DNA of 8,898 nucleotides from an archaeon (GTDB lineage: Archaea; Iainarchaeota; Iainarchaeia; Iainarchaeales; CSSED10-239): NCBI GenBank assembly GCA_037147375.1, contig JBAWVI010000038.1, forward strand, positions 1 to 8,898, in the 5' to 3' direction. The position numbers and the translations under genes are program-made. The notes under the pieces are model-generated. The model ran no database searches. It was given only the letters and a program-made list of their open reading frames with translations, and was not told where the DNA came from. Below, in pieces: positions 1-8,820 of the stretch. The stretch's first letter is position 1, and each line of letters starts with the position of its first letter.

Positions 1-3000
1 ATACACTTTGATTTAGTGTTGCAAGATCCCAAGCATCTCCACTTACCCATGATTTTGTGTAATTAAATGAAGAAGTTCCAGCTTCTCTTGCAAATCTAGC
101 ACAATAACCTTGATATTCTGTTTTATCAAGATATTTTGATTTTAAGTAATCATCAGAATATGGAGATCTAACTGGAAGAATTCCAGAAAAGTTCCTTGTT
201 CCTATTCCTGGTGTTGTTGGAGTAGTTGGTGTTGTGCCAGGTGTAGTTGATGCACCAGAATTAATTAAGCTTGGTGCTCCAGGAATTACACATGAATCAA
301 TTCTTGCATCATCTGGTATAGATCCACCAGTGAACTTTTCAACATTAATTATATACATTGCTCTCTTGCTTGCTTCAGATTTATCTGTTCCTGTTGGAAC
401 ATTGAAATCAGGATTTTCACCAAGAGTTATCATATATAAAATATTTTTATTGAAAGTAATATTATTTCCAATAGCAACTGAATTAGATATTCCTGTTTCT
501 CCAGTTTCGCTTAATGCATAGTCTCCAGCCTTGTTACCCATAACAGTACAAACAATACCTCTAACAAGACCTGTACCAAAGTTAGCCCATTTCTTTCCTG
601 CACCTGGTTTTGTTTTTAATTTAACAGTATCTCCATTTGCTTGGATCTTATCTAAATCATCAAGACCTTGTATTGCATCATTTGAAACAAGCATTTCTGC
701 AGGATTAGCAGGATTAATTCTTGCATTTGTAGTTACACTTGTTTTTATTGCATCTAATTTACCTTTAGCTTTACTTATTCCTGCAAGTTCTCCTTCAAGT
801 TTTTTAACATTTTTATTTAAATTAAATTTAGTCCATGCTCTTGCTTTTGTTCCTTTCATTTGTGCAAGTTTATCATTAACTAATTTTTCACTTGCTGCTA
901 ACTGTTTAATTTGATCATCAATATTTTTGATCATGTCATCATATTCTGTTTTAGGAACTAAATTAATTTGATCAGTTGGATCAATAGCAGGAGTTGCTGG
1001 TGTGCCTGGTGTTGCAGGAGTACCTGGAGTACCAGGAACTGCAGGAGTTCCAGGTGTTGGTGGTGTACCTGGTGTGCCTGGTGTAAATACTGCTGGAGTA
1101 CCAACAGTACCTGGAACATAAACAAACTTCTTTGCTTGATAACTTACTAATTTATTTTTTAAGCTTAAATTATTTGGAGGGAATCCTCCTCCACCAGTAT
1201 GTGTTCCTTTCTCAATATATTCTGTTAAAATACTTACTTCTCCTTTTGATAGATTCTTGAATGCGTTTGGATCAAAAGTTCCACCAGGACTTACTCTAGC
1301 TAAAATATCATCAAACTCAGCTTCAACAGATGGGAATGCTGCATTAGTTATTGGTGAAGTAATTGTTCCAACAACTGGTTTATGATAAGTATATACTCCT
1401 GTTCCGTTCATATATCCAACATGATTTGCAAGTTGTCTTTCAAGACCAGGAACTGCTTCTGCTCCTGTTGCTGCAATTGGATTATAACTTGCAGGTGTGC
1501 CTGGAGTACCAGGTATAGTAATAGGAGCTGTTGCAGGAGTACCAGGAGTACCTGGAATTGCAGGTGTGCCTGGAGTACCAGGAATTGCTGGAGTGCCAGG
1601 AACTGCAGGAATTGCAGGTGTACCTGGTGTTGGTGGTATTATTCCAGCAGATGCAACTGTGTTTCCAGGACCATATAATGGAGTTGCTTGAGCTGTTCCG
1701 AGTGGAGTTGAATTCCACATTCTCTTTCCATCAAGACCACCAGCAGTTAATGAACTTATTCCTGCTGCGCCTGGAGTTAATGCATCACCAACTCCACCAA
1801 TTATTCCATTAAAGAAAGAACCAATTCCATCAACTGCAGATTCAGTTATCTTTGCATCCTTTCCAAATAACCATGCTAATAAATATTTATCTATTGCTTG
1901 ACTAATACTCATGTTTGTGGATGTGCTTACAAATATACTTAATGCAGGAATACCACATCCTATTCCACAATCAATTAAAATATCTTTTGCCCATTTTGCT
2001 TGACCTAAAACAGGGATCCATGCAATTATTGCATCAGCAGCAACTACACAAGCACCACAAGCAACCATACATGTTCCACCATATATACCAGCATTCTTTA
2101 CTGCTTTTGTAAGTCTTGCGTCCTTTTCAGCTTTCTGTGTGTCAAGTGTACATCCTGCTTGCTTGTAATCAAAGAATAATGATGCTTCTGGATATTCTTT
2201 ATTAAATTTAGATAATGTTTCACAGAACGTTTCTGTGTCTGTTGTATTATAACTTTTATTCCAATCAATTAATGCATAATAGGTGTATGGAATATCAACA
2301 GGCTTCTTTTCTATTTTTGCAATTGTATTTTCTGCATGCTTTAAGATCTCAATAGGAGGAACTGCACATGTTGTAAGTTTAATCTTTGCAATTGCTTGTC
2401 TTTGTGTATTAAGTTTTCCTGAATCCACATAAATACTTTTTGCAGTAATAATAATATCTTTATCTACAAACTGATTAATCTCAGGAACTGTTGTTGCAAA
2501 GCACACAGTAAAGTTTGCATCTTTTCCTTTTTCAAGTTCAAGTACTAAGTTATTATCATATCTATTTCCATTATACTTGAAATAAACTTGTAGATTTATA
2601 GGTGCTGCATAATTAATTTTAATAGTTTCAGATATTCCTGAAGTTATATTATAATCTGTACAACTTTCATTAGTTGTTATTTTCATGAGCTTATCATTAG
2701 CTGGATTAAACTTTAATTCTCCAGCAGCAATTAATTTCAAGATAAGTAAGCTATCTCCATTTTCACTAACACAAATGTCAGCCATGTCTTGCTTTGATAA
2801 GAAGTTACCAATAACTCTTGTTGCATCAGAGATTACGTTATCAGGAAGCTTCTTTTTATTATCAATTGCATATCTATCATTAATATTTATTTCAATTGTT
2901 TCTGGTTGTGGCATAGTAACAACTGTATTATCAAGATAGTATATCTTTGCAAGAGCATCTGGGTTTTCAGTTACAGCTCCAATCTTGATTTCAAGCTTAT

Positions 3001-6000
3001 TATTCTTTGATGAAAGAGAAGTTGTTTTTGCATATCTTAGTTCATCACTAAATATATTCTTTGCAACACCCTTTCCAACATTTTCATCTCCAGTTAAAAC
3101 TGTAAGCCAAGTATTAGCTGGTTTTGCTTTACTTAATTTTCTATCCCAAGGCATGTAATTTAAGAAGTTTTCAACCTTCTTATCACATTGAGCTGTTTCT
3201 TTATAATCTTCAATTAATACAAAGTAATATGCTCTATCAGGGAATAAATTTTCATAATCAGTTGCAATTACTCCATCAATTGTAACCTTGTATCTTCCAC
3301 ATCCTTTGAATCCTGAGCTTAGCATTATTTTATTTCCAGATGCGTATGCACCATAAACATCAGCAGGCATCTTATCAAATGGACTTAATTCAACCATGTA
3401 ATTTTTAAAAGAATAATTTGATTTTAAAAGTATTTCATGTAATAAGTCTGTACTAATAACATCATTCTGTAAATAGAATGTAAATGAGCTTGGTGGACTT
3501 TTTATGTTTCCTAAATTTGAAACTGCACAATATCCTCTGCTTGCTGTGCTTGTACAACCAGTGCTAATTACTTTATTTGAATATTGAGCTGAAATAGATT
3601 TAACATTTAAAGATAATTCATCTATCTTCTTTAAAATTAATTCTCCAGCAAGGTATGCATCACAATATCCGTTTTGTCCAGTACATTCTGTGTTTGCAAC
3701 AATTGGGAAAGTTAAGGTTCTTACTTCATTTACTTTTCCACAAACAGGAACTTCTGCGCTTGTTGATTGTTCCATATCTATTAACTCATCTTTATTTTCT
3801 GAATTAATGGTTATTGAGGTTAAGATCGGTTCTGATTTAGCATATTGTCCAGAGTTTGCAAGTTGTCCAATAAGGTTTACAGGCATTAATGGTGAACCTC
3901 CAAAGTTGTTTGCAGTTAATCTTAAAGCATATGTTGCAGTTCCATTAACAGGAATTGCAGAACCCATAATGTTTCCAGATACAGGATAAAGCATTAATGG
4001 ATTATTACCAAATGTTTGAGTATAAAGATTATTACTTTTATCTATTCCTCTAATAATTATTGGTTCAGCACATGCATTTGTTAAAGTTACGTTTCTTGTT
4101 TTTGTTTCTCCAACATTTAAAGTATAATCAAGCTTGTTTGGAGCAACCTTTATACAATTAGGAGAAGATATTATAAAATAAATATTTACTTTTGTTGTAA
4201 TTGGACTTTTAATTCCAACTGCTTTTCCAGTAATAGTATAATACATATCATCTATTGTTCTTGCATTAATCTTTACTTGGAATTTTAAATCAATTGGTAT
4301 TTCTTTACCTGGTAATAATATAGCAACCTCTCTTGGATATTCAGTAACTCCAATATTTGCTGAAACTATTTCAGGATATTTACTTAATTGTATATCTGTT
4401 ATTGGAATTTTTCCAAGATTTCTAATCATGAATCTACTTGAAGTAATTCCTGCTTCTTGTTCATTCATTTGTGAGATTGGAACATAGATTACTTGTGGAG
4501 CAACCCATAAAGCTTTTGAAACATCAAGTAAAGAAACATTTAAAGTTGTATTTGAAACTGTGTAATATGGATTTCTCCAAATGATTTCATAATTGTATGT
4601 TTTAATTTGTTTTCTTGCTTCTGGATTTTTAATATTAATTGTATATTCTGTTTCTTCTCCTGGAAGAATTGTAATTTGAGTTAAACCTATATCAAGCTTG
4701 TTGTTTGAACTTGATTTTATTGATTTAAGTTCAGGAGTAATTATTAATGTTTTATCACAATTATTTTGGATAAGTACAGGGAAATTATTTTCAGCATCAG
4801 CTTCAAGTCCAACATATGTGTCTATTTTATTTGGTGTGATTACTAAACAATTATTTGTTTGAAGTCCTCTAATAACTCTAACATTTATTAATTTAGAAAC
4901 TTGTCTATTTCCAAATAATCCATAGATAGGTATTTTTCCACTAGCTGTTTTAAATTTACTATCTTTTGAAACTGTTGCAGTTGCAATGAATTCTCCATCT
5001 CCTCTTTTTGCAAATCCAATTGGACCTGCAACATCAACAGTTAGTGTATCAACTGGATCTGTCCAAATAACGTTACCAATTGTTACACTTGAAATGACAA
5101 AGTCACTTGTGTTCTTTAATTTAAAGGTTACTGAATCACTAATGTCTTCAGTTCCAAGATTTAAAAGAATCTCACTTGGGCCTGTAAGAATTGCATCATC
5201 TGCAACAACAAGCTCTCTTGAGTAAGGTGCATATCCATGTGCACTTACTATAACTATGATTTTATTAACTACAAACTTATTAGTAATATTATATTTACCA
5301 TTCTTTCCATTTACTTTACTACCTTTAATTGAAGTAATGAACTGTCCTTTATCATCATTGATTGTTATAAGTGCATTTTCAATTGGAGTTCCAGTTGCTG
5401 AATCATAAACTTCAATGTTTAAAGGATCTCCATATGGAAGAACAACATCAGGATTAAATACAACTCTTAATTCACGTCTATCAAATATATTAAAACTAAT
5501 TTTTTCTGTTCTTGCATTTATTCCTCCACCTGAATATTTGAAATTAACATATGATACTCCAAGTGCTTTTGTAACAAAGAAGAAATAAACTTTCTTTCTT
5601 ACTCCACCTTCAAGAACAATCTTATCTTTTGTAATTGTAAATTCATTTGCGTTTTCAATACCATAATTAGATGGGAAAACTAAACTATCACCTGCAGAAA
5701 TAAATGAAATGATAGGTAAGGTTGTAGATGTTTCTGCATCAATTACAACTTCTCTATTCTTTTCTGAAAATAAATTTAATTCAATTGCATAAATATCATT
5801 AGTTAGTCCAAAGAATTCATCTTTAGTATACTTAATTAAATTTGAATCTATAAACTCATAAGAAATACATAAGTCATTTACACAATCTAAAGGAACATCA
5901 AATAAATTAACTTCAACTTCCTTTGTGTCTGAATAAAGTGCTTGTTTTCTTGAGTTTGAAAATGTTTGTCCAAGAGTATCGTCTTTTGGATCTCTAAAAT

Positions 6001-8275
6001 AACTTCTATCAATTAAATTCCAAGCTCTATATTTGAATTTTAATTTATAATTAACAAGCTCTGTTGCTTTAACTCTAACCTTAACTTGCTTTGAAGAAAT
6101 AGATTGCTTGTCTTTCCATTCCATTTCAATCCATTTATTAATCTCTCCTTCTGTTCCTTGATTAATAATATCTGTTCCTTGATTACCAGGTGCTGGTTCA
6201 GGATTGTATGTTGTTGAATATTTAAATCTTGTAGAGTCTGCTTGGAAACCAGTTATTCCATAAGTCATGTTTTCAGAATCTGTTTCTGAATCTTCACCAG
6301 CTCTAATATGCACTCCACCTGCTGTTGCTCCTTCAGGGAAGATTACATCAAACACTAAGAAATAATCTTTATCTATTGCAATGTAATTTACTTTTTCTCC
6401 TCTATCATTTAAGATTCCAGTAAATTCAATAACAGGATAATTACCAATAGTTTTTGGTTTAATTGTTAAAGAAAGTAAGCTTCCTTCTCCTGCTGAAAGA
6501 CTAGCAGTTGTTCTGTTTCCATTAACGTCTGTGTAGTCAACTATATAATCATTATAACCTTTAGTTTCAAACATTACTCCATCAGTGTTAACATCTGCAT
6601 CATAAAGAACAGTTCCATCTTTACTTGTAATTGTTACGTGTCCATCAGTTATTCTTGATCCATCTTGATTTAATAAATCAAGAGATAATATTTTAGATGC
6701 ATCATTGATTACAAAAATTAATTTATTTTCTTTTGTTTTTGTAATTGTAATATATTCATAATCATTAATATCTCCAACTCTTGCAAGAACTAAATATTGT
6801 GAATCAATCTTTAAAGGATAAGAAATTCCTCCTTGCATATCTACAAGTAATTCTTCTCCGTATGGAACTTCAAGTCCACTAACAACTTCATATAATCTTA
6901 TTCTTGCGTTTGTTACAGGTAAGTTTTTACCATCAACTACAAACACATAAAGCAAAGCACTATTATCAACTGTAATTCTTTCAAGTTTCATTTCAACTTC
7001 ATTAAGATTCTTTAAAGAAACTAAAGTGTTTGCACAAAAATAATTATCTGCACATGCAACAACATAAACGTCTGAATCAACAACAAGACCAGAGAAAGAA
7101 ATGTTTCCTGCAAAATCAGAAGTATTAGAATCTATTTTTTGTCCAGTAGGTGTATAAAGAGTAACAATTGCATTTGAGATAGGAAGAACATCAGCTTTAC
7201 TCATAACCTTAACTGAAAGATTTGTTCCACCAAGTGGAAGAGTAACTGTATATGATTCTTCATCATTTAAAATTCTATAAGATTTATTTTCATCACTTGT
7301 AACTGTTCTATATCCTTCTTTTGAAACTGTGTATGTAATTGTTTCAAGCATATCAATTGCAAGAAGAGCTTTTCCGTTAGCTGTAATTGCTTCATCAATT
7401 AATGTTCCTTGTAAATTAAATACTTTAACAGTTGCATCAGATAATGGTTGATTATCTTTATCTATAACAATAAATGAAACTCTGCTTTTTCCTTCAAAGA
7501 GAGCTGTTGATACACTAAGCTTAACTTCTTGTGTAATCATTTCTTCATTTAATTGAAAGTTTTCAATTTTACTATCTTGATATTTATCTGCTGAAATTAT
7601 TAATGTAATATTTTTATTTTGAGGAACTCCTAAAGTTAGATTATATGCTGAATCCATAACTCCAGAAACTTCTTCTTCTTGTCCGTTAACTGTATATCTT
7701 GCAATAGCTGTTGCATTTGCAATTATTTTATTTGTTTGTGAATCAAGAACTCTAAGTCTTAATGTTCCAGGAACAACAACTTCATCAAACACAATTGTAA
7801 TTATTTGATTTTTAGAATTAATTAATACTTCTTGATAATTATCTTGTTGTCCATCTTTAATAGCTGTTATCTTATATGTTTTTCCAACTTTTAGTTTTAA
7901 TTTTAAAACATCTGCATTACTTATGTTTTGAGAGAAAGAAGAACCACTCTTTAGGTCCTTAAATGTTACATCAACATCTTGAAGTGCTACTCCATTTGGA
8001 TCTTGAATAATAAAACTAACATTCATGCTTGAACTAAGTCCAAACACAAGTAAGAAAATAATTAAAAGAAGGATTGCTAGAAGAATAGACCCAACTAATG
8101 CAAAAGAAGGTATGCCTTTGCTTTCAAGATATTCATTAAGTTTATTTAAAGGAATTCCTATTCCAGAGACCCACGCAGAAAACTTATTGTATCCATTCTC
8201 AGCTTTAGTGTATACTTTTGAAAAAAAGTTTTTGTTCTCAGTATCTGAGGTTGCATCTACCTTTGTCTTTACCAT
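1..8275 (-). CDS. Giant membrane-anchored, multi-domain cell-surface protein (adhesin-like). It is 3'-partial, at least 2,758 aa, with the C-terminus beyond the left edge of the window.
   Basis: I hand-translated the minus-strand frame whose codons occupy + positions 2-4, 5-7 ... 8273-8275. It opens with ATG at 8275-8273 (MVKTKVDATSDTENKNFFSKVY...). An in-frame TAA lies at 8293-8291, with no alternative start codon between it and the ATG. 2,758 sense codons follow with no TAA/TAG/TGA down to the edge (...SWVSGDAWDLATLNQSV), leaving one base over. Residue numbering closed exactly against coordinates at independent checkpoints: K606=6460-6458, M1501=3775-3773, G2063=2089-2087, C2725=103-101. 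Composition is protein-like and domain periodicity holds throughout. It is most likely missing from the ORF track simply because it has no stop inside the window. Confidence 0.93.
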   Translation of the reverse strand, partial: MVKTKVDATSDTENKNFFSKVYTKAENGYNKFSAWVSGIGIPLNKLNEYLESKGIPSFALVGSILLAILLLIIFLLVFGLSSSMNVSFIIQDPNGVALQDVDVTFKDLKSGSSFSQNISNADVLKLKLKVGKTYKITAIKDGQQDNYQEVLINSKNQIITIVFDEVVVPGTLRLRVLDSQTNKIIANATAIARYTVNGQEEEVSGVMDSAYNLTLGVPQNKNITLIISADKYQDSKIENFQLNEEMITQEVKLSVSTALFEGKSRVSFIVIDKDNQPLSDATVKVFNLQGTLIDEAITANGKALLAIDMLETITYTVSKEGYRTVTSDENKSYRILNDEESYTVTLPLGGTNLSVKVMSKADVLPISNAIVTLYTPTGQKIDSNTSDFAGNISFSGLVVDSDVYVVACADNYFCANTLVSLKNLNEVEMKLERITVDNSALLYVFVVDGKNLPVTNARIRLYEVVSGLEVPYGEELLVDMQGGISYPLKIDSQYLVLARVGDINDYEYITITKTKENKLIFVINDASKILSLDLLNQDGSRITDGHVTITSKDGTVLYDADVNTDGVMFETKGYNDYIVDYTDVNGNRTTASLSAGEGSLLSLTIKPKTIGNYPVIEFTGILNDRGEKVNYIAIDKDYFLVFDVIFPEGATAGGVHIRAGEDSETDSENMTYGITGFQADSTRFKYSTTYNPEPAPGNQGTDIINQGTEGEINKWIEMEWKDKQSISSKQVKVRVKATELVNYKLKFKYRAWNLIDRSYFRDPKDDTLGQTFSNSRKQALYSDTKEVEVNLFDVPLDCVNDLCISYEFIDSNLIKYTKDEFFGLTNDIYAIELNLFSEKNREVVIDAETSTTLPIISFISAGDSLVFPSNYGIENANEFTITKDKIVLEGGVRKKVYFFFVTKALGVSYVNFKYSGGGINARTEKISFNIFDRRELRVVFNPDVVLPYGDPLNIEVYDSATGTPIENALITINDDKGQFITSIKGSKVNGKNGKYNITNKFVVNKIIVIVSAHGYAPYSRELVVADDAILTGPSEILLNLGTEDISDSVTFKLKNTSDFVISSVTIGNVIWTDPVDTLTVDVAGPIGFAKRGDGEFIATATVSKDSKFKTASGKIPIYGLFGNRQVSKLINVRVIRGLQTNNCLVITPNKIDTYVGLEADAENNFPVLIQNNCDKTLIITPELKSIKSSSNNKLDIGLTQITILPGEETEYTINIKNPEARKQIKTYNYEIIWRNPYYTVSNTTLNVSLLDVSKALWVAPQVIYVPISQMNEQEAGITSSRFMIRNLGKIPITDIQLSKYPEIVSANIGVTEYPREVAILLPGKEIPIDLKFQVKINARTIDDMYYTITGKAVGIKSPITTKVNIYFIISSPNCIKVAPNKLDYTLNVGETKTRNVTLTNACAEPIIIRGIDKSNNLYTQTFGNNPLMLYPVSGNIMGSAIPVNGTATYALRLTANNFGGSPLMPVNLIGQLANSGQYAKSEPILTSITINSENKDELIDMEQSTSAEVPVCGKVNEVRTLTFPIVANTECTGQNGYCDAYLAGELILKKIDELSLNVKSISAQYSNKVISTGCTSTASRGYCAVSNLGNIKSPPSSFTFYLQNDVISTDLLHEILLKSNYSFKNYMVELSPFDKMPADVYGAYASGNKIMLSSGFKGCGRYKVTIDGVIATDYENLFPDRAYYFVLIEDYKETAQCDKKVENFLNYMPWDRKLSKAKPANTWLTVLTGDENVGKGVAKNIFSDELRYAKTTSLSSKNNKLEIKIGAVTENPDALAKIYYLDNTVVTMPQPETIEININDRYAIDNKKKLPDNVISDATRVIGNFLSKQDMADICVSENGDSLLILKLIAAGELKFNPANDKLMKITTNESCTDYNITSGISETIKINYAAPINLQVYFKYNGNRYDNNLVLELEKGKDANFTVCFATTVPEINQFVDKDIIITAKSIYVDSGKLNTQRQAIAKIKLTTCAVPPIEILKHAENTIAKIEKKPVDIPYTYYALIDWNKSYNTTDTETFCETLSKFNKEYPEASLFFDYKQAGCTLDTQKAEKDARLTKAVKNAGIYGGTCMVACGACVVAADAIIAWIPVLGQAKWAKDILIDCGIGCGIPALSIFVSTSTNMSISQAIDKYLLAWLFGKDAKITESAVDGIGSFFNGIIGGVGDALTPGAAGISSLTAGGLDGKRMWNSTPLGTAQATPLYGPGNTVASAGIIPPTPGTPAIPAVPGTPAIPGTPGTPAIPGTPGTPATAPITIPGTPGTPASYNPIAATGAEAVPGLERQLANHVGYMNGTGVYTYHKPVVGTITSPITNAAFPSVEAEFDDILARVSPGGTFDPNAFKNLSKGEVSILTEYIEKGTHTGGGGFPPNNLSLKNKLVSYQAKKFVYVPGTVGTPAVFTPGTPGTPPTPGTPAVPGTPGTPATPGTPATPAIDPTDQINLVPKTEYDDMIKNIDDQIKQLAASEKLVNDKLAQMKGTKARAWTKFNLNKNVKKLEGELAGISKAKGKLDAIKTSVTTNARINPANPAEMLVSNDAIQGLDDLDKIQANGDTVKLKTKPGAGKKWANFGTGLVRGIVCTVMGNKAGDYALSETGETGISNSVAIGNNITFNKNILYMITLGENPDFNVPTGTDKSEASKRAMYIINVEKFTGGSIPDDARIDSCVIPGAPSLINSGASTTPGTTPTTPTTPGIGTRNFSGILPVRSPYSDDYLKSKYLDKTEYQGYCARFAREAGTSSFNYTKSWVSGDAWDLATLNQSV
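2..160 (-). other. Possible N-terminal half of a papain-fold cysteine peptidase/amidase module (CHAP, NlpC/P60 or transglutaminase-core type), cut by the window edge
   Basis: YSDDYLKSKYLDKTEYQGYCARFAREAGTSSFNYTKSWVSGDAWDLATLNQSV contains G-x-C-x-x-F-A around C2725 (codon at 103-101). About 20 residues later comes W-x-S-G-D-A-W. This resembles the nucleophile-Cys helix start and the following G-[ND]-A..W element of CHAP-type domains, and the G-x-C-x-x-F-A of transglutaminase-core domains. The partner His/Asp would lie outside the window, so the call rests on motifs only. Confidence 0.3.
200..247 (-). repeat. Short Thr/Pro linker block C (aa 2677-2692, TTPGTTPTTPTTPGIG)
   Basis: This low-complexity T/P/G stretch sits immediately upstream of the last, truncated module. 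It has the same compositional class as blocks A and B. Confidence 0.7.
743..946 (-). other. Predicted coiled-coil segment (aa ~2444-2511)
   Basis: EYDDMIKNIDDQIKQLAASEKLVNDKLAQMKGTKARAWTKFNLNKNVKKLEGELAGISKAKGKLDAIK is Pro-free and rich in K/E/D/Q/L. Hydrophobic residues fall at heptad-like spacing. It starts directly after PT block B. Confidence 0.5.
986..1114 (-). repeat. Tandem Pro/Gly/Thr repeat block B (aa 2388-2430, PGTVGTPAVFTPGTPGTPPTPGTPAVPGTPGTPATPGTPATPA)
   Basis: PGTP occurs 6 times by my count. Block B shares exact direct 14-16-mers with block A. gttgcaggagtacc is at 1011-1024 and 1530-1543. cctggagtaccaggaa is at 1023-1038 and 1569-1584. ccaggaactgcagga is at 1032-1046 and 1596-1610. 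Confidence 0.9.
1490..1636 (-). repeat. Tandem Pro/Gly/Thr repeat block A (aa 2214-2262, PPTPGTPAIPAVPGTPAIPGTPGTPAIPGTPGTPATAPITIPGTPGTPA)
   Basis: PGTP occurs 8 times by my count. At the DNA level there is an exact 23-mer, gcaggtgtgcctggagtaccagg, at 1491-1513 and 1560-1582, 69 nt apart and in frame. There is also an exact 14-mer, ggaattgcaggtgt, at 1554-1567 and 1608-1621. Confidence 0.9.
1922..2089 (-). other. Cys/Gly-rich hydrophobic hairpin (two candidate membrane segments), aa 2063-2118
   Basis: Segment 1 is GIYGGTCMVACGACVVAADAIIAWIPVLG (aa 2063-2091, 2003..2089). A short basic loop QAKWAKD follows. Segment 2 is ILIDCGIGCGIPALSIFVST (aa 2099-2118, 1922..1981). These are the only strongly hydrophobic stretches after the N-terminal anchor. 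Each contains one Asp and several Cys. Confidence 0.5.
3806..5188 (-). other. Four tandem Ig-like units of about 110-120 aa (PapD/ASH or 'choice-of-anchor'-type sequence pattern), aa ~1030-1490
   Basis: Units fall at about aa 1030-1137, 1139-1250, 1255-1368 and 1370-1490. Each has an early [LI]x[IV]xP..[IL] strand. About 25-30 residues later comes a hydrophobic-x-[LI]-x-N motif: VTFKLKNTSDFVISSV, FPVLIQNNCDKTLII, SRFMIRNLGKIPITDI and RNVTLTNACAEPIII. Units 2 and 4 share NC[LI]x[IV]xPNK[IL]D and a second Cys 28-30 residues later. Confidence 0.5.
5204..5473 (-). other. Seventh carboxypeptidase-regulatory-like beta-sandwich unit (aa 935-1024)
   Basis: ELRVVFNPDVVLPYGDPLNIEVYDSATGTPIENALITINDDKGQF...KIIVIVSAHGYAPYSRELVV shows the same strand / D..G.P[IL]..A.[IV] / GY..-terminal strand pattern as the N-terminal array. 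Confidence 0.55.
6455..8023 (-). other. Array of six tandem 79-85 aa beta-sandwich units (carboxypeptidase-regulatory-like / PEGA-like pattern), aa 85-607
   Basis: Units fall at about aa 85-165, 170-254, 264-348, 351-434, 440-524 and 528-606. Each opens with an alternating hydrophobic strand followed by D/N..G/N.P[IL]..A.V. Examples are VSFIVIDKDNQPLSDATVKVF, LLYVFVVDGKNLPVTNARIRLY, LSLDLLNQDGSRITDGHVTIT and LSVKVMSKADVLPISNAIVTLY. Each closes with a Y/F-x-hydrophobic-x-hydrophobic strand. The units are divergent at the nucleotide level, so this is an ancient domain array and not a recent DNA repeat. The family assignment rests on motif pattern only; no HMM was run. Confidence 0.6.
8036..8107 (-). 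other. N-terminal transmembrane signal-anchor of the giant protein (aa 57-80)
   Basis: The segment is SFALVGSILLAILLLIIFLLVFGL, 24 uninterrupted hydrophobic residues. It is preceded by 56 mostly polar or charged residues (...NEYLESKGIP) and followed by SSS. It lies too far from the N-terminus for a classical cleaved Sec signal peptide. I therefore predict a type-II-like anchor with the N-terminus inside and the bulk of the protein outside. Confidence 0.75.
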
Positions 8276-8308
8276 ATTTTTTCTTCTCTTTTATTTCCAG
8301 AATAAATA

Positions 8309-8484: not shown

Positions 8485-8820
8485 TTATTTTGAATTTGAA
8501 ACTCTTACTATTGCAACAATTGAAACAATTAATGCTGCTGGTCCAATGAATTGAACTAAGTTAACAATTATTGATCTTAACATTCCACCAATAACTGGCA
8601 TTGCATTAAGTGATGTGCTCATTGCAACAAGTGAGATTGCAGCAAGTAAGAACAAAGAAATGTTTTTATCATCAACATTTAGTAATCCAACAAGAACACC
8701 TAAAATCATCAATACTATTGCAACCCAAGTTAAATTTGTTAATGATGGGATTATACCAAAGATGATTGCTATTAATATTCCTGCAAGAAAAGAAAATGCA
8801 CCTAATTTTTGTAATTGCAT
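8485..8820 (-). CDS. Small integral membrane protein, 111 aa, about four predicted TM helices, unknown function
   Basis: This is a complete ORF from the track. Hydrophobic segments are GAFSFLAGILIAIIFGII, WVAIVLMILGVLVGLL, ISLFLLAAISLVAMSTSL and IIVNLVQFIGPAALIVSIVAIV, separated by short polar loops. An SD-like GGGGGT lies 8 nt upstream of the ATG, and a terminator-like tract follows the stop. I do not recognise a family. Confidence 0.8.
   Translation of the reverse strand: MQLQKLGAFSFLAGILIAIIFGIIPSLTNLTWVAIVLMILGVLVGLLNVDDKNISLFLLAAISLVAMSTSLNAMPVIGGMLRSIIVNLVQFIGPAALIVSIVAIVRVSNSK

Follow-up and report, generated by a model that had tools for sequence, protein, structure and literature searches.

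A conserved apolar hairpin module in a family of giant surface proteins from DPANN-type archaea

The giant gene and its hairpin

The DNA analysed here (the window, 8,898 nucleotides with a G+C content of about 30%) corresponds to positions 1 to 8,898 of contig JBAWVI010000038.1 (assembly GCA_037147375.1), from an archaeon of the Iainarchaeota, a phylum of the kingdom Nanobdellati (the DPANN group). It carries a minus-strand gene for a giant surface protein, here called giant-1, in which two apolar segments joined by a short loop lie far downstream of an N-terminal membrane anchor. This hairpin module is real, specific to the giant-1 family, conserved and previously undescribed. The best reading of the two segments is as the helix-turn-helix core of an all-alpha module of about 220 residues (amino acids (aa) ~1972–2198) at the distal end of the stalk of the protein.

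The feature, at window positions 1727–2089, is coded on the minus strand; the plus-strand translation there contains many stops. In the reverse direction, frame 3 is uninterrupted for 2,763 codons (window 8290..2) and continues past the left end of the window; amino acid numbers given here count codons from window 8290. The start of giant-1 is likely the Met at codon 6 (window 8275), from which the gene extends as one open frame over more than 2,758 codons (2..8275, minus strand), with the C-terminus beyond the window. The product aligns over its full length with homologues of 2,629–3,182 aa.

Translation places the first apolar segment, GIYGGTCMVACGACVVAADAIIAWIPVLG, at aa 2068–2096 (window 2003–2089), the loop QAKWAKD at aa 2097–2103 (window 1982–2002), and the second segment, ILIDCGIGCGIPALSIFVST, at aa 2104–2123 (window 1922–1981), all on the minus strand, and the alignments described below delimit the same two segments. 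The N-terminal anchor, SFALVGSILLAILLLIIFLLVFGLS, occupies aa 62–86 (window 8033..8107, minus strand), so that the hairpin begins some 1,980 residues further on. A Kyte-Doolittle scan (19-residue window, values above 1.5) found only three hydrophobic regions in the 2,763 residues, namely the anchor region (aa 57–96; maximum 3.32), segment 1 (2.18) and segment 2 (1.89). The arrangement given in a preliminary description of this DNA, two hydrophobic segments with a 7-residue loop at this distance from the anchor, is thus exact by translation and agrees with the scan. That description had also placed five Cys and one Asp in each segment; there is indeed one Asp in each, but five is the total number of cysteines, three in segment 1 and two in segment 2.

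Homologues

The family was collected in two ways. An exhaustive phmmer search with aa 2030–2200 against 1.84 billion representative sequences returned nine relatives (E-values 9e-25 to 2e-6), six of them complete proteins of 2,629–3,182 aa in which the match lies at residue ~2,050–2,300, and three of them fragments. Loci were also scanned with the back-translated motif A-L-V-D-W-N-K-S-Y-N, which precedes the hairpin by about 60 residues, and 13 were found (two in genome assemblies and 11 in metagenomes). All 13 contain the hairpin, though the scan motif lies outside it, and the segments, kept in homologues in this way, are no accident of composition. There are about 17 distinct giant proteins (2,600–3,200 aa) from DPANN-type archaea, each with the hairpin at the same relative position. 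The sole name on database records of the family is "hypothetical protein". An archaeal-type NurA gene is present on contigs bearing the gene that lies upstream of giant-1 in the window. The family was aligned in sets of 10 and 17 sequences, with identities of 25–46% except for four closer relatives at 59–92%.

No Pfam, PHROG or NCBIfam family describes the module, as judged from searches with the whole protein, the module and the 10 alignment members; a single weak match to phrog_17347 (E 0.004) was absent from the other members and was rejected. A profile search of the PDB with the hairpin alignment (A2) gave nothing below E = 1, and no relatives were detected in 2.9 million viral contigs or in 50,697 phage genomes. 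A word-indexed protein search with A2 or with the N-terminal 695 aa gave no matches, the family seemingly lying outside that index.

Anatomy of the module

The N-terminal part of the module (aa 1972–2067; window 2090..2377, minus strand; alignments A1–A3) holds the ALIDWNKSYN motif and the cysteines of an invariant pair (2023/2047); it also includes a basic helix, faced with Ala, that runs into the hairpin. The hairpin itself consists of two arms of about 20 residues (aa 2070–2091 and 2100–2120) with aromatics at both ends (Y/F 2070–71, W/F 2091, W/Y/F 2100 and F/Y/W 2120), connected by a short polar turn with the consensus I-P-x-L-G-Q-x-K; over the loop the consensus reads G-Q-x-K-[WYFL]-x-[KS]-[DG]. 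Columns 2070–2095 and 2104–2121 are nearly free of charge in 14 lineages, save for the Asp/Asn at 2086 and 2107. Many arm positions swap freely among I/L/V/F/M/W, and positions 2073–2084 are occupied by small residues in 60–100% of the sequences.

Within this permissive background C2074, C2078, C2108, C2112 and P2115 are invariant in both the 10- and the 17-sequence alignment. Y2070, P2093, G2096 and G2109 are nearly so, and about 75% of sequences have C2081. The second Cys motif reads, according to lineage, C-G-x-G-C-G-x-P or C-G-x-F-[AST]-C-G-x-P. Segment 2 thus carries a one-residue indel between its invariant cysteines (CX3C versus CX4C), the longer form occurring in about half of the family.

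Behind the hairpin, aa 2124–2153 (window 1832..1921, minus strand) show the alternating apolar and charged columns of amphipathic helices, and AlphaFold2 places helices here with low confidence. The Gly-rich, small-residue stretch DGIGSFFNGIIGGVGDALTPGAAGISSLTAGGLDG follows (aa 2154–2188; window 1727–1831, minus strand), and its composition is distinctive, with 31% Gly against 7.4% in the whole protein. GxxxG occurs twice, against 2.9 occurrences expected from composition-preserving shuffles, and [GAS]xxx[GAS] nine times against 8.0 expected, a fraction of 0.36 of the shuffles reaching at least the observed number. The sequence is kept in close relatives only; distant relatives have at this place a Gly/Ser/Thr-rich amphipathic sequence with many gaps. 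The stretch is accordingly a compositional bias and not a periodic zipper, and the GxxxG-like spacing proposed in the preliminary description is not borne out. The expectation of conserved Cys, Asp and Gly positions holds for the four cysteines and for the D/N at 2086 and 2107; the Gly stretch does not share it outside the close relatives. The module closes with the motif G-[KR]-[RK]-[ML]-x2-[AST]-x-P-[LI]-G (GKRMWNSTPLG in giant-1; aa 2188–2198; window 1697..1729, minus strand; from the alignments). This basic motif stands just ahead of a Pro/Thr-rich linker and may serve for processing or as a hinge.

The module was modelled with AlphaFold2 from the 10-sequence alignment. The model is all-helical, with helices at aa 2053–2085 and 2095–2125, and of low confidence, at a predicted local distance difference test (pLDDT) score of 47. 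Foldseek matches of the model to phycobiliproteins and globins were insignificant and were discarded as evidence.

Membrane insertion and topology

The hairpin has the length and the aromatic pattern of a membrane hairpin, but its hydrophobicity is far below that of the true anchor. Insertion energies were estimated on a Hessa-type biological hydrophobicity scale. For the best 19-mer of segment 1 the estimate is +2.0 kcal/mol in the window protein, and relatives range from +2.4 to +6.1 kcal/mol; for segment 2 it is +4.7 kcal/mol in the window protein, with a range of +3.7 to +8.3 kcal/mol among relatives. The strongly hydrophobic anchor of giant-1 scored −6.4 kcal/mol, and the N-terminal anchors of seven family members fell between −6.1 and −8.0 kcal/mol. 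Kyte-Doolittle values for the segments range from 0.8 to 2.2 across the family; the pair in the window passes the classical threshold of 1.6, whereas most homologues remain under it.

The distribution of charge was examined in 14 lineages. The loop holds an average of 1.4 Lys and Arg residues, against 3.4 in the N-terminal and 0.9 in the C-terminal flank (15 residues each). With the stalk outside and the loop inside, this is the opposite of the positive-inside rule. Taken with the insertion energies, it suggests that the segments are too weak to act as a constitutive stop-transfer anchor. Both flanks of the hairpin are probably extracellular, since invariant, locally paired cysteines occur on both, as they do elsewhere in the ectodomain, and the number of membrane spans would then be zero or two. 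The earlier suggestion that the chain returns to the same side of the membrane is supported by these same cysteine pairs.

It is unlikely that the segments span the producer's own membrane twice, as a transmembrane hairpin that would put the QAKWAKD loop into the cytoplasm and return the C-terminal arm to the exterior. Such a hairpin would account for two apolar runs of about 20–22 residues with aromatic ends and a short turn bearing a conserved Lys, and for the window segments exceeding a Kyte-Doolittle value of 1.6. The mid-helix Asp/Asn and the small-residue faces (C/G/A/S/T at i, i+4 and i+7) are typical of packed membrane helices, and hairpins of marginal hydrophobicity can enter a membrane with assistance. 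In five of the seven lineages examined, the gene directly upstream codes for a conserved 111-aa membrane protein that has four hydrophobic segments; the hairpin might pack on it, or might form a ring in the manner of other hairpins rich in small residues, for instance the c subunits of ATP synthase. Pinning of the protein to its own membrane at both ends, which the preliminary description had offered as one possibility, is nevertheless disfavoured by the positive insertion energies (+2 to +8 kcal/mol), by the broken positive-inside rule, by the indel between the invariant cysteines of segment 2, and by the paralogue giant-2 (see below), which does without a second anchor over its first 2,020 residues. 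Most homologues, as noted, fall short of 1.6, and two lineages have a LemA gene in place of the small membrane protein. Two spans would also leave four invariant cysteines unexplained within a bilayer, when the other cysteines look like ectodomain disulfide pairs, and about 20 beta-sandwich domains would need to fold back to the membrane.

The cysteine pattern

Of the 29 cysteines of the window protein, 26 are conserved in at least six of eight full-length homologues. Twenty-three were scored as invariant in all eight, the column of C2667 being misaligned in P0013 and P0015. Most conserved cysteines are spaced as local pairs, including 2023/2047 in the module and the stalk pairs 413/419, 803/808, 1148/1178, 1379/1407, 1517/1543, 1579/1588, 1664/1702 and 1840/1877, which are invariant in all eight homologues. 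Local alignment of the C-terminal domain shows that P0013 and P0015 have each lost both C2581 and C2667. Pairing with joint loss is the signature that structural disulfides of an extracellular protein would be expected to leave.

Because this paired, invariant pattern runs through the whole family, the four cysteines of the hairpin are most parsimoniously read as disulfides as well. C2074/C2112 and C2078/C2108 are both symmetric about residue ~2093, the Pro of the turn, which makes two inter-helix staples geometrically plausible. A pairing of C1975 with C2081 was considered and set aside, the two being lost jointly in P0013 and P0015, whereas L015 does not show the joint loss. Three other motifs involving cysteine were rejected: an internal lipobox ("MVAC"), of which the −1 position is unconserved and which does not lie within a signal peptide; a thioester motif, for which no CGEQ-type pattern is present; and a ferredoxin-type cluster motif, the spacing of which does not match.

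The same pattern would suit a purely structural element with no membrane role, in which the hairpin is the permanently buried core of an extracellular helical "neck" between the stalk and the flexible C-terminal arm, or the surface through which such necks oligomerise; the Cys staples would stabilise a domain exposed to the environment. This explanation is rather doubtful, though it matches several observations. The Gly and Pro residues beside the cysteines (C-G...C-G-x-P) and the CX3C/CX4C indel suggest a knotted local structure over a free helix, the flanking amphipathic helices are able to cover the hairpin, and the coiled coil predicted downstream suggests oligomers. Two consecutive nearly charge-free runs of about 20 residues, kept in 14 lineages with hydrophobic though variable positions and with aromatic belts, are however unusual in a soluble core and typical of lipid-facing helices, and the module is confined to the paralogue that bears wall hydrolases.

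It is very improbable that the five cysteines and the two Asp/Asn residues bind a metal or cofactor between the two helices, whether as a Cys4 centre or as a cluster of the Fe-S kind, with a redox or sensing role. The arrangement CX3CX2C ... CX3-4CG-x-P provides four invariant cysteines together with C2081 and a Gly after each cysteine of the second motif, and many source samples come from anoxic habitats, judging by sample type alone. No metal-binding family was matched in Pfam, NCBIfam or the PDB, the spacing is unlike that of known cluster motifs, the module is probably extracellular, and the CX3C/CX4C variation would be awkward for a fixed coordination geometry.

Other regions of giant-1

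The N-terminal leader of giant-1 (about 56 aa; window 8108..8275, minus strand; from the translation) is conserved, with a conservation peak at aa ~46 in the eight-sequence alignment, and ends in K-G-[IVL]-P-x-F immediately ahead of the anchor. We infer that it is cytoplasmic. It is among the best-conserved parts of the protein; the closing motif is invariant across the N-termini of P0010–P0015, and the same type of leader is found on giant-2 (at L018 17831..., at L020 16463... and on the downstream open reading frame (ORF) of L017). The end of the leader resembles a class III (prepilin-type) cleavage site, for which the leader would be unusually long.

The stalk, an ectodomain of about 1,885 residues (window 2378..8032, minus strand), was delimited from Pfam matches and the alignment and is made up of beta-sandwich-type domains with local Cys pairs. 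CarboxypepD_reg was matched in giant-1 (E 1e-14), with bMG3 under its cut-off; the stalks of homologues gave SdrD_B, PEGA and DUF7507-like matches, of which PEGA alone was above the Pfam cut-off. The best-conserved stretch of the whole protein, GGVHIRAGEDSETDSENMTYGITGFQADSTRFKYSTTYNP..., lies within the stalk at aa ~680–730 (window ~6101–6253, minus strand), with a conservation score of 0.79 against a mean of 0.52. It is distant from the hairpin and matches no family.

A second contig covering this gene, L001 (ERZ4223250), is 99.6% identical and has 155 additional bases at window ~2857–2911 (L001 5988–6197). These consist of a 55-base direct repeat and 100 new bases; they break the giant ORF, which the gene caller has split, and reflect either variation between strains or an error of assembly. 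L001 stops at the same base as the window, and the C-terminus was read instead from L008, a relative of 85% identity.

The module is placed between the stalk and a tethered C-terminal arm. The order after the module is linker, domain of about 125 aa, linker, charged helical region, domain of about 110 aa and, in some members, enzymes. In the window the Pro/Thr-rich, low-complexity linkers, of low conservation, lie at 1481–1678 and 983–1105 and the domain of about 125 aa between them at 1106–1480 (all minus strand; from the translation). The linkers are a nuisance in homology searching: with the C-terminal 813 aa as query, PGTPGTP repeats swamped the word-indexed search, and P-G-T-P and P-A-I-P linkers in general dominate such word-based searches with spurious matches only, so that masking is needed. 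The charged helical region (aa 2437–2530; window 701..982, minus strand) is a probable coiled coil by sequence, with only weak Pfam matches to helical families.

The conserved C-terminal domain (window 281..613, minus strand; alignment A4) of about 110 aa contains the Cys pair 2581/2667 within the motif G-x-G-x2-R-G-x2-C-x3-G-N ... R-x-D-x-C and is the last domain in many members. AlphaFold2 models it as one helix and a small sheet (pLDDT 58). A further domain begins with YQGYCARFAREA... and is cut by the end of the window (2..193, minus strand). It is complete in L008 ("...YSHVILYVG..."), where a Cys...His motif is the only visible feature, and a papain-like amidase is suspected by motif only. 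At locus L010 (5211–5750 of contig Ga0074198_1000002, 976,691 bp) the giant ORF ends before this Cys-His domain, which is found in the next ORF; the gene may be split or frameshifted there, or the domain may be a modular cassette. The contig approaches the size of a whole DPANN genome. Two homologues carry a recognisable wall hydrolase, with NLPC_P60 matches of 39.6 bits in P0012 and 83.2 bits in P0015 (Pfam cut-off 23).

Neighbouring genes

An operon order of small membrane protein, giant-1, a protein of 544–600 aa and a second giant protein (giant-2) is kept across lineages. In the window the first of these genes, for the 111-aa protein, lies at 8485..8820 (minus strand). Copies occur at L005 3395–3730, L006 3234–3578 (on the opposite strand), L018 7493–7828 and L022 4174–4509, and the LemA gene that takes its place was found in the P0013 and P0015 lineages. 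The 111-aa protein belongs to no Pfam family. Judged by eye, it seems to be much better conserved than giant-1. By analogy it may act as a partner or in the manner of an immunity protein.

The protein of 544–600 aa is encoded at L018 15965–17680, L020 14497–16299, L021 14558–16192, L022 13844–15553 and L023 8237–9913, and partial copies lie downstream in L006, L008, L009, L010, L012, L014 and L017. Two small ORFs separate it from giant-1 in L022 and L014. Its N-terminus, (K/R)-G-F-(T/N)-L-F-T-A-(L/M)-V-S-L, resembles a prepilin class III signal or type IV pilin with Thr for Glu at +5. In L005 and L013 the downstream gene starts K-G-Q-I-S-V-E-V-L and gives a weak match to the Pfam family Class_IIIsignal (E 0.05). 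These downstream genes suggest a tie between the operon and a type-IV-filament-like apparatus.

Giant-2 (about 2,230–2,350 aa) is encoded two genes downstream of giant-1 in every lineage examined and shares with it the leader, the anchor and, distantly, the stalk, the two proteins being 21% identical across ~1,000 aa (E 7e-12). It has no second hydrophobic segment within its first 2,020 residues and was not matched by the phmmer search with the hairpin. The module would thus be a payload and not a general anchoring feature.

Discussion

On present evidence, we tentatively favour, at somewhat short of an even chance, the reading that the extracellular module with its Cys-stapled apolar hairpin is a latent membrane-insertion element directed at a partner cell. 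At rest the hairpin would lie outside the producer's membrane, shielded by the flanking amphipathic helices and stapled by disulfides among C2074, C2078, C2108 and C2112. Enzymes tethered C-terminally on the Pro/Thr-rich linkers (NlpC/P60 in homologues, the Cys-His domain here) would open the wall of the partner. The hairpin, set free once the wall is open, would then enter the partner's membrane and either anchor the contact or perforate that membrane. These steps would parallel those of pore-forming colicins, the diphtheria-toxin T domain and T5 Pb2-type tape-measure proteins, to none of which the module is related in sequence. The position of NlpC/P60 wall hydrolases distal to the hairpin in homologues fits the logic of an attack on another cell, a possibility that the preliminary description had also raised.

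Several points weigh against this reading. No direct tie between the module and a membrane was found, which favours a structural core, and the four invariant cysteines could serve metal binding or helix packing instead. Full insertion from outside would be costly, for the turn, which bears an Asp and one or two Lys, would have to pass through the target membrane. The shape of the module is backed by a model with a pLDDT of only 47, and a Foldseek search of the PDB with this model gave a best E-value of 1.8 and TM-scores of at most 0.22. About 17 distinct sequences are too few for covariation, the insertion energies are estimates that depend on the scale values, and the Cys-His domain of the window ("YCARF...") matched nothing in Pfam or the PDB.

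A wider proposal, that the operon encodes a DPANN-specific contact apparatus in which the disulfide-latched hairpin is the membrane-breaching device of giant-1, is speculative and on balance doubtful. The hairpin would open on contact or reduction and insert after the hydrolases had cut the wall, and its insertion would provide an anchoring point or a pore through which metabolically dependent archaea tap their hosts. The 111-aa protein would protect or partner the producer's membrane, in the manner of colicin immunity.

Among known systems the closest in kind are the giant extracellular murein-lytic proteins of up to 3,000 aa described from Woese- and Pacearchaeota, for which action on bacterial walls has been proposed (Castelle et al. 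2021; PMC8204110). The giant-1 family resembles these proteins (fam00969) in size class (2,600–3,200 aa), DPANN lineage, extracellular location, bacterial-type wall hydrolases and a proposed role at the wall of another cell. It differs in having NlpC/P60 and the Cys-His domain, and a hairpin module is not named in the relevant passages of that paper. Pfam found no lytic-transglycosylase domain in the window protein, P0012, P0013 or P0015. Giant-1 is a protein of the same kind as these DPANN giant wall-lytic surface proteins, with an undescribed module and operon.

The module also recalls the pore-forming domains of colicins, diphtheria toxin T and Bcl-2 in being a predicted all-alpha domain of about 200 residues with two apolar helices of about 20 residues, a short turn and amphipathic flanks. 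A gene for a small polytopic membrane protein is adjacent, as with colicin immunity proteins, a likeness by analogy only. The four invariant cysteines, however, have no counterpart in those domains, no sequence, profile or confident fold match to them was obtained, and the giant-1 module is an internal domain of a cell-anchored protein whereas colicin-type toxins are released.

Tape-measure proteins of the T5 Pb2 type combine membrane-active segments with a C-terminal muralytic domain. Giant-1 follows a similar order of extended part, hydrophobic and Gly-rich segments, coiled coil and peptidoglycan hydrolase, but it is encoded in a cellular archaeal operon and no viral or phage relatives were found; the PHROGs gave only sporadic weak matches to families of unknown function and none to a tape measure. 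The small Tim proteins (twin CX3C/CHCH) likewise have two Cys-x3-Cys motifs on successive helices. The hairpin departs from them in its longer spacer (29 residues, against 11–16), in its second motif, which is CX4C in about half of the family, and in its arms, which are apolar rather than amphipathic, and no homology to them was found.

The hairpin module is small enough for stand-alone expression. Should it prove to be a structural core or a second anchor, the present delineation would still provide a domain definition for a family of "hypothetical proteins". DPANN archaea are tiny cells with reduced genomes and are mostly obligate symbionts. Their intercellular structures are visible by cryo-tomography, with few molecular players named (PMC11329633), and genomics so far points only to giant wall-lytic surface proteins (PMC8204110). 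How these archaea attach to other cells and breach their envelopes is largely unexplained, and the giant-1 family offers a concrete candidate for the membrane step.

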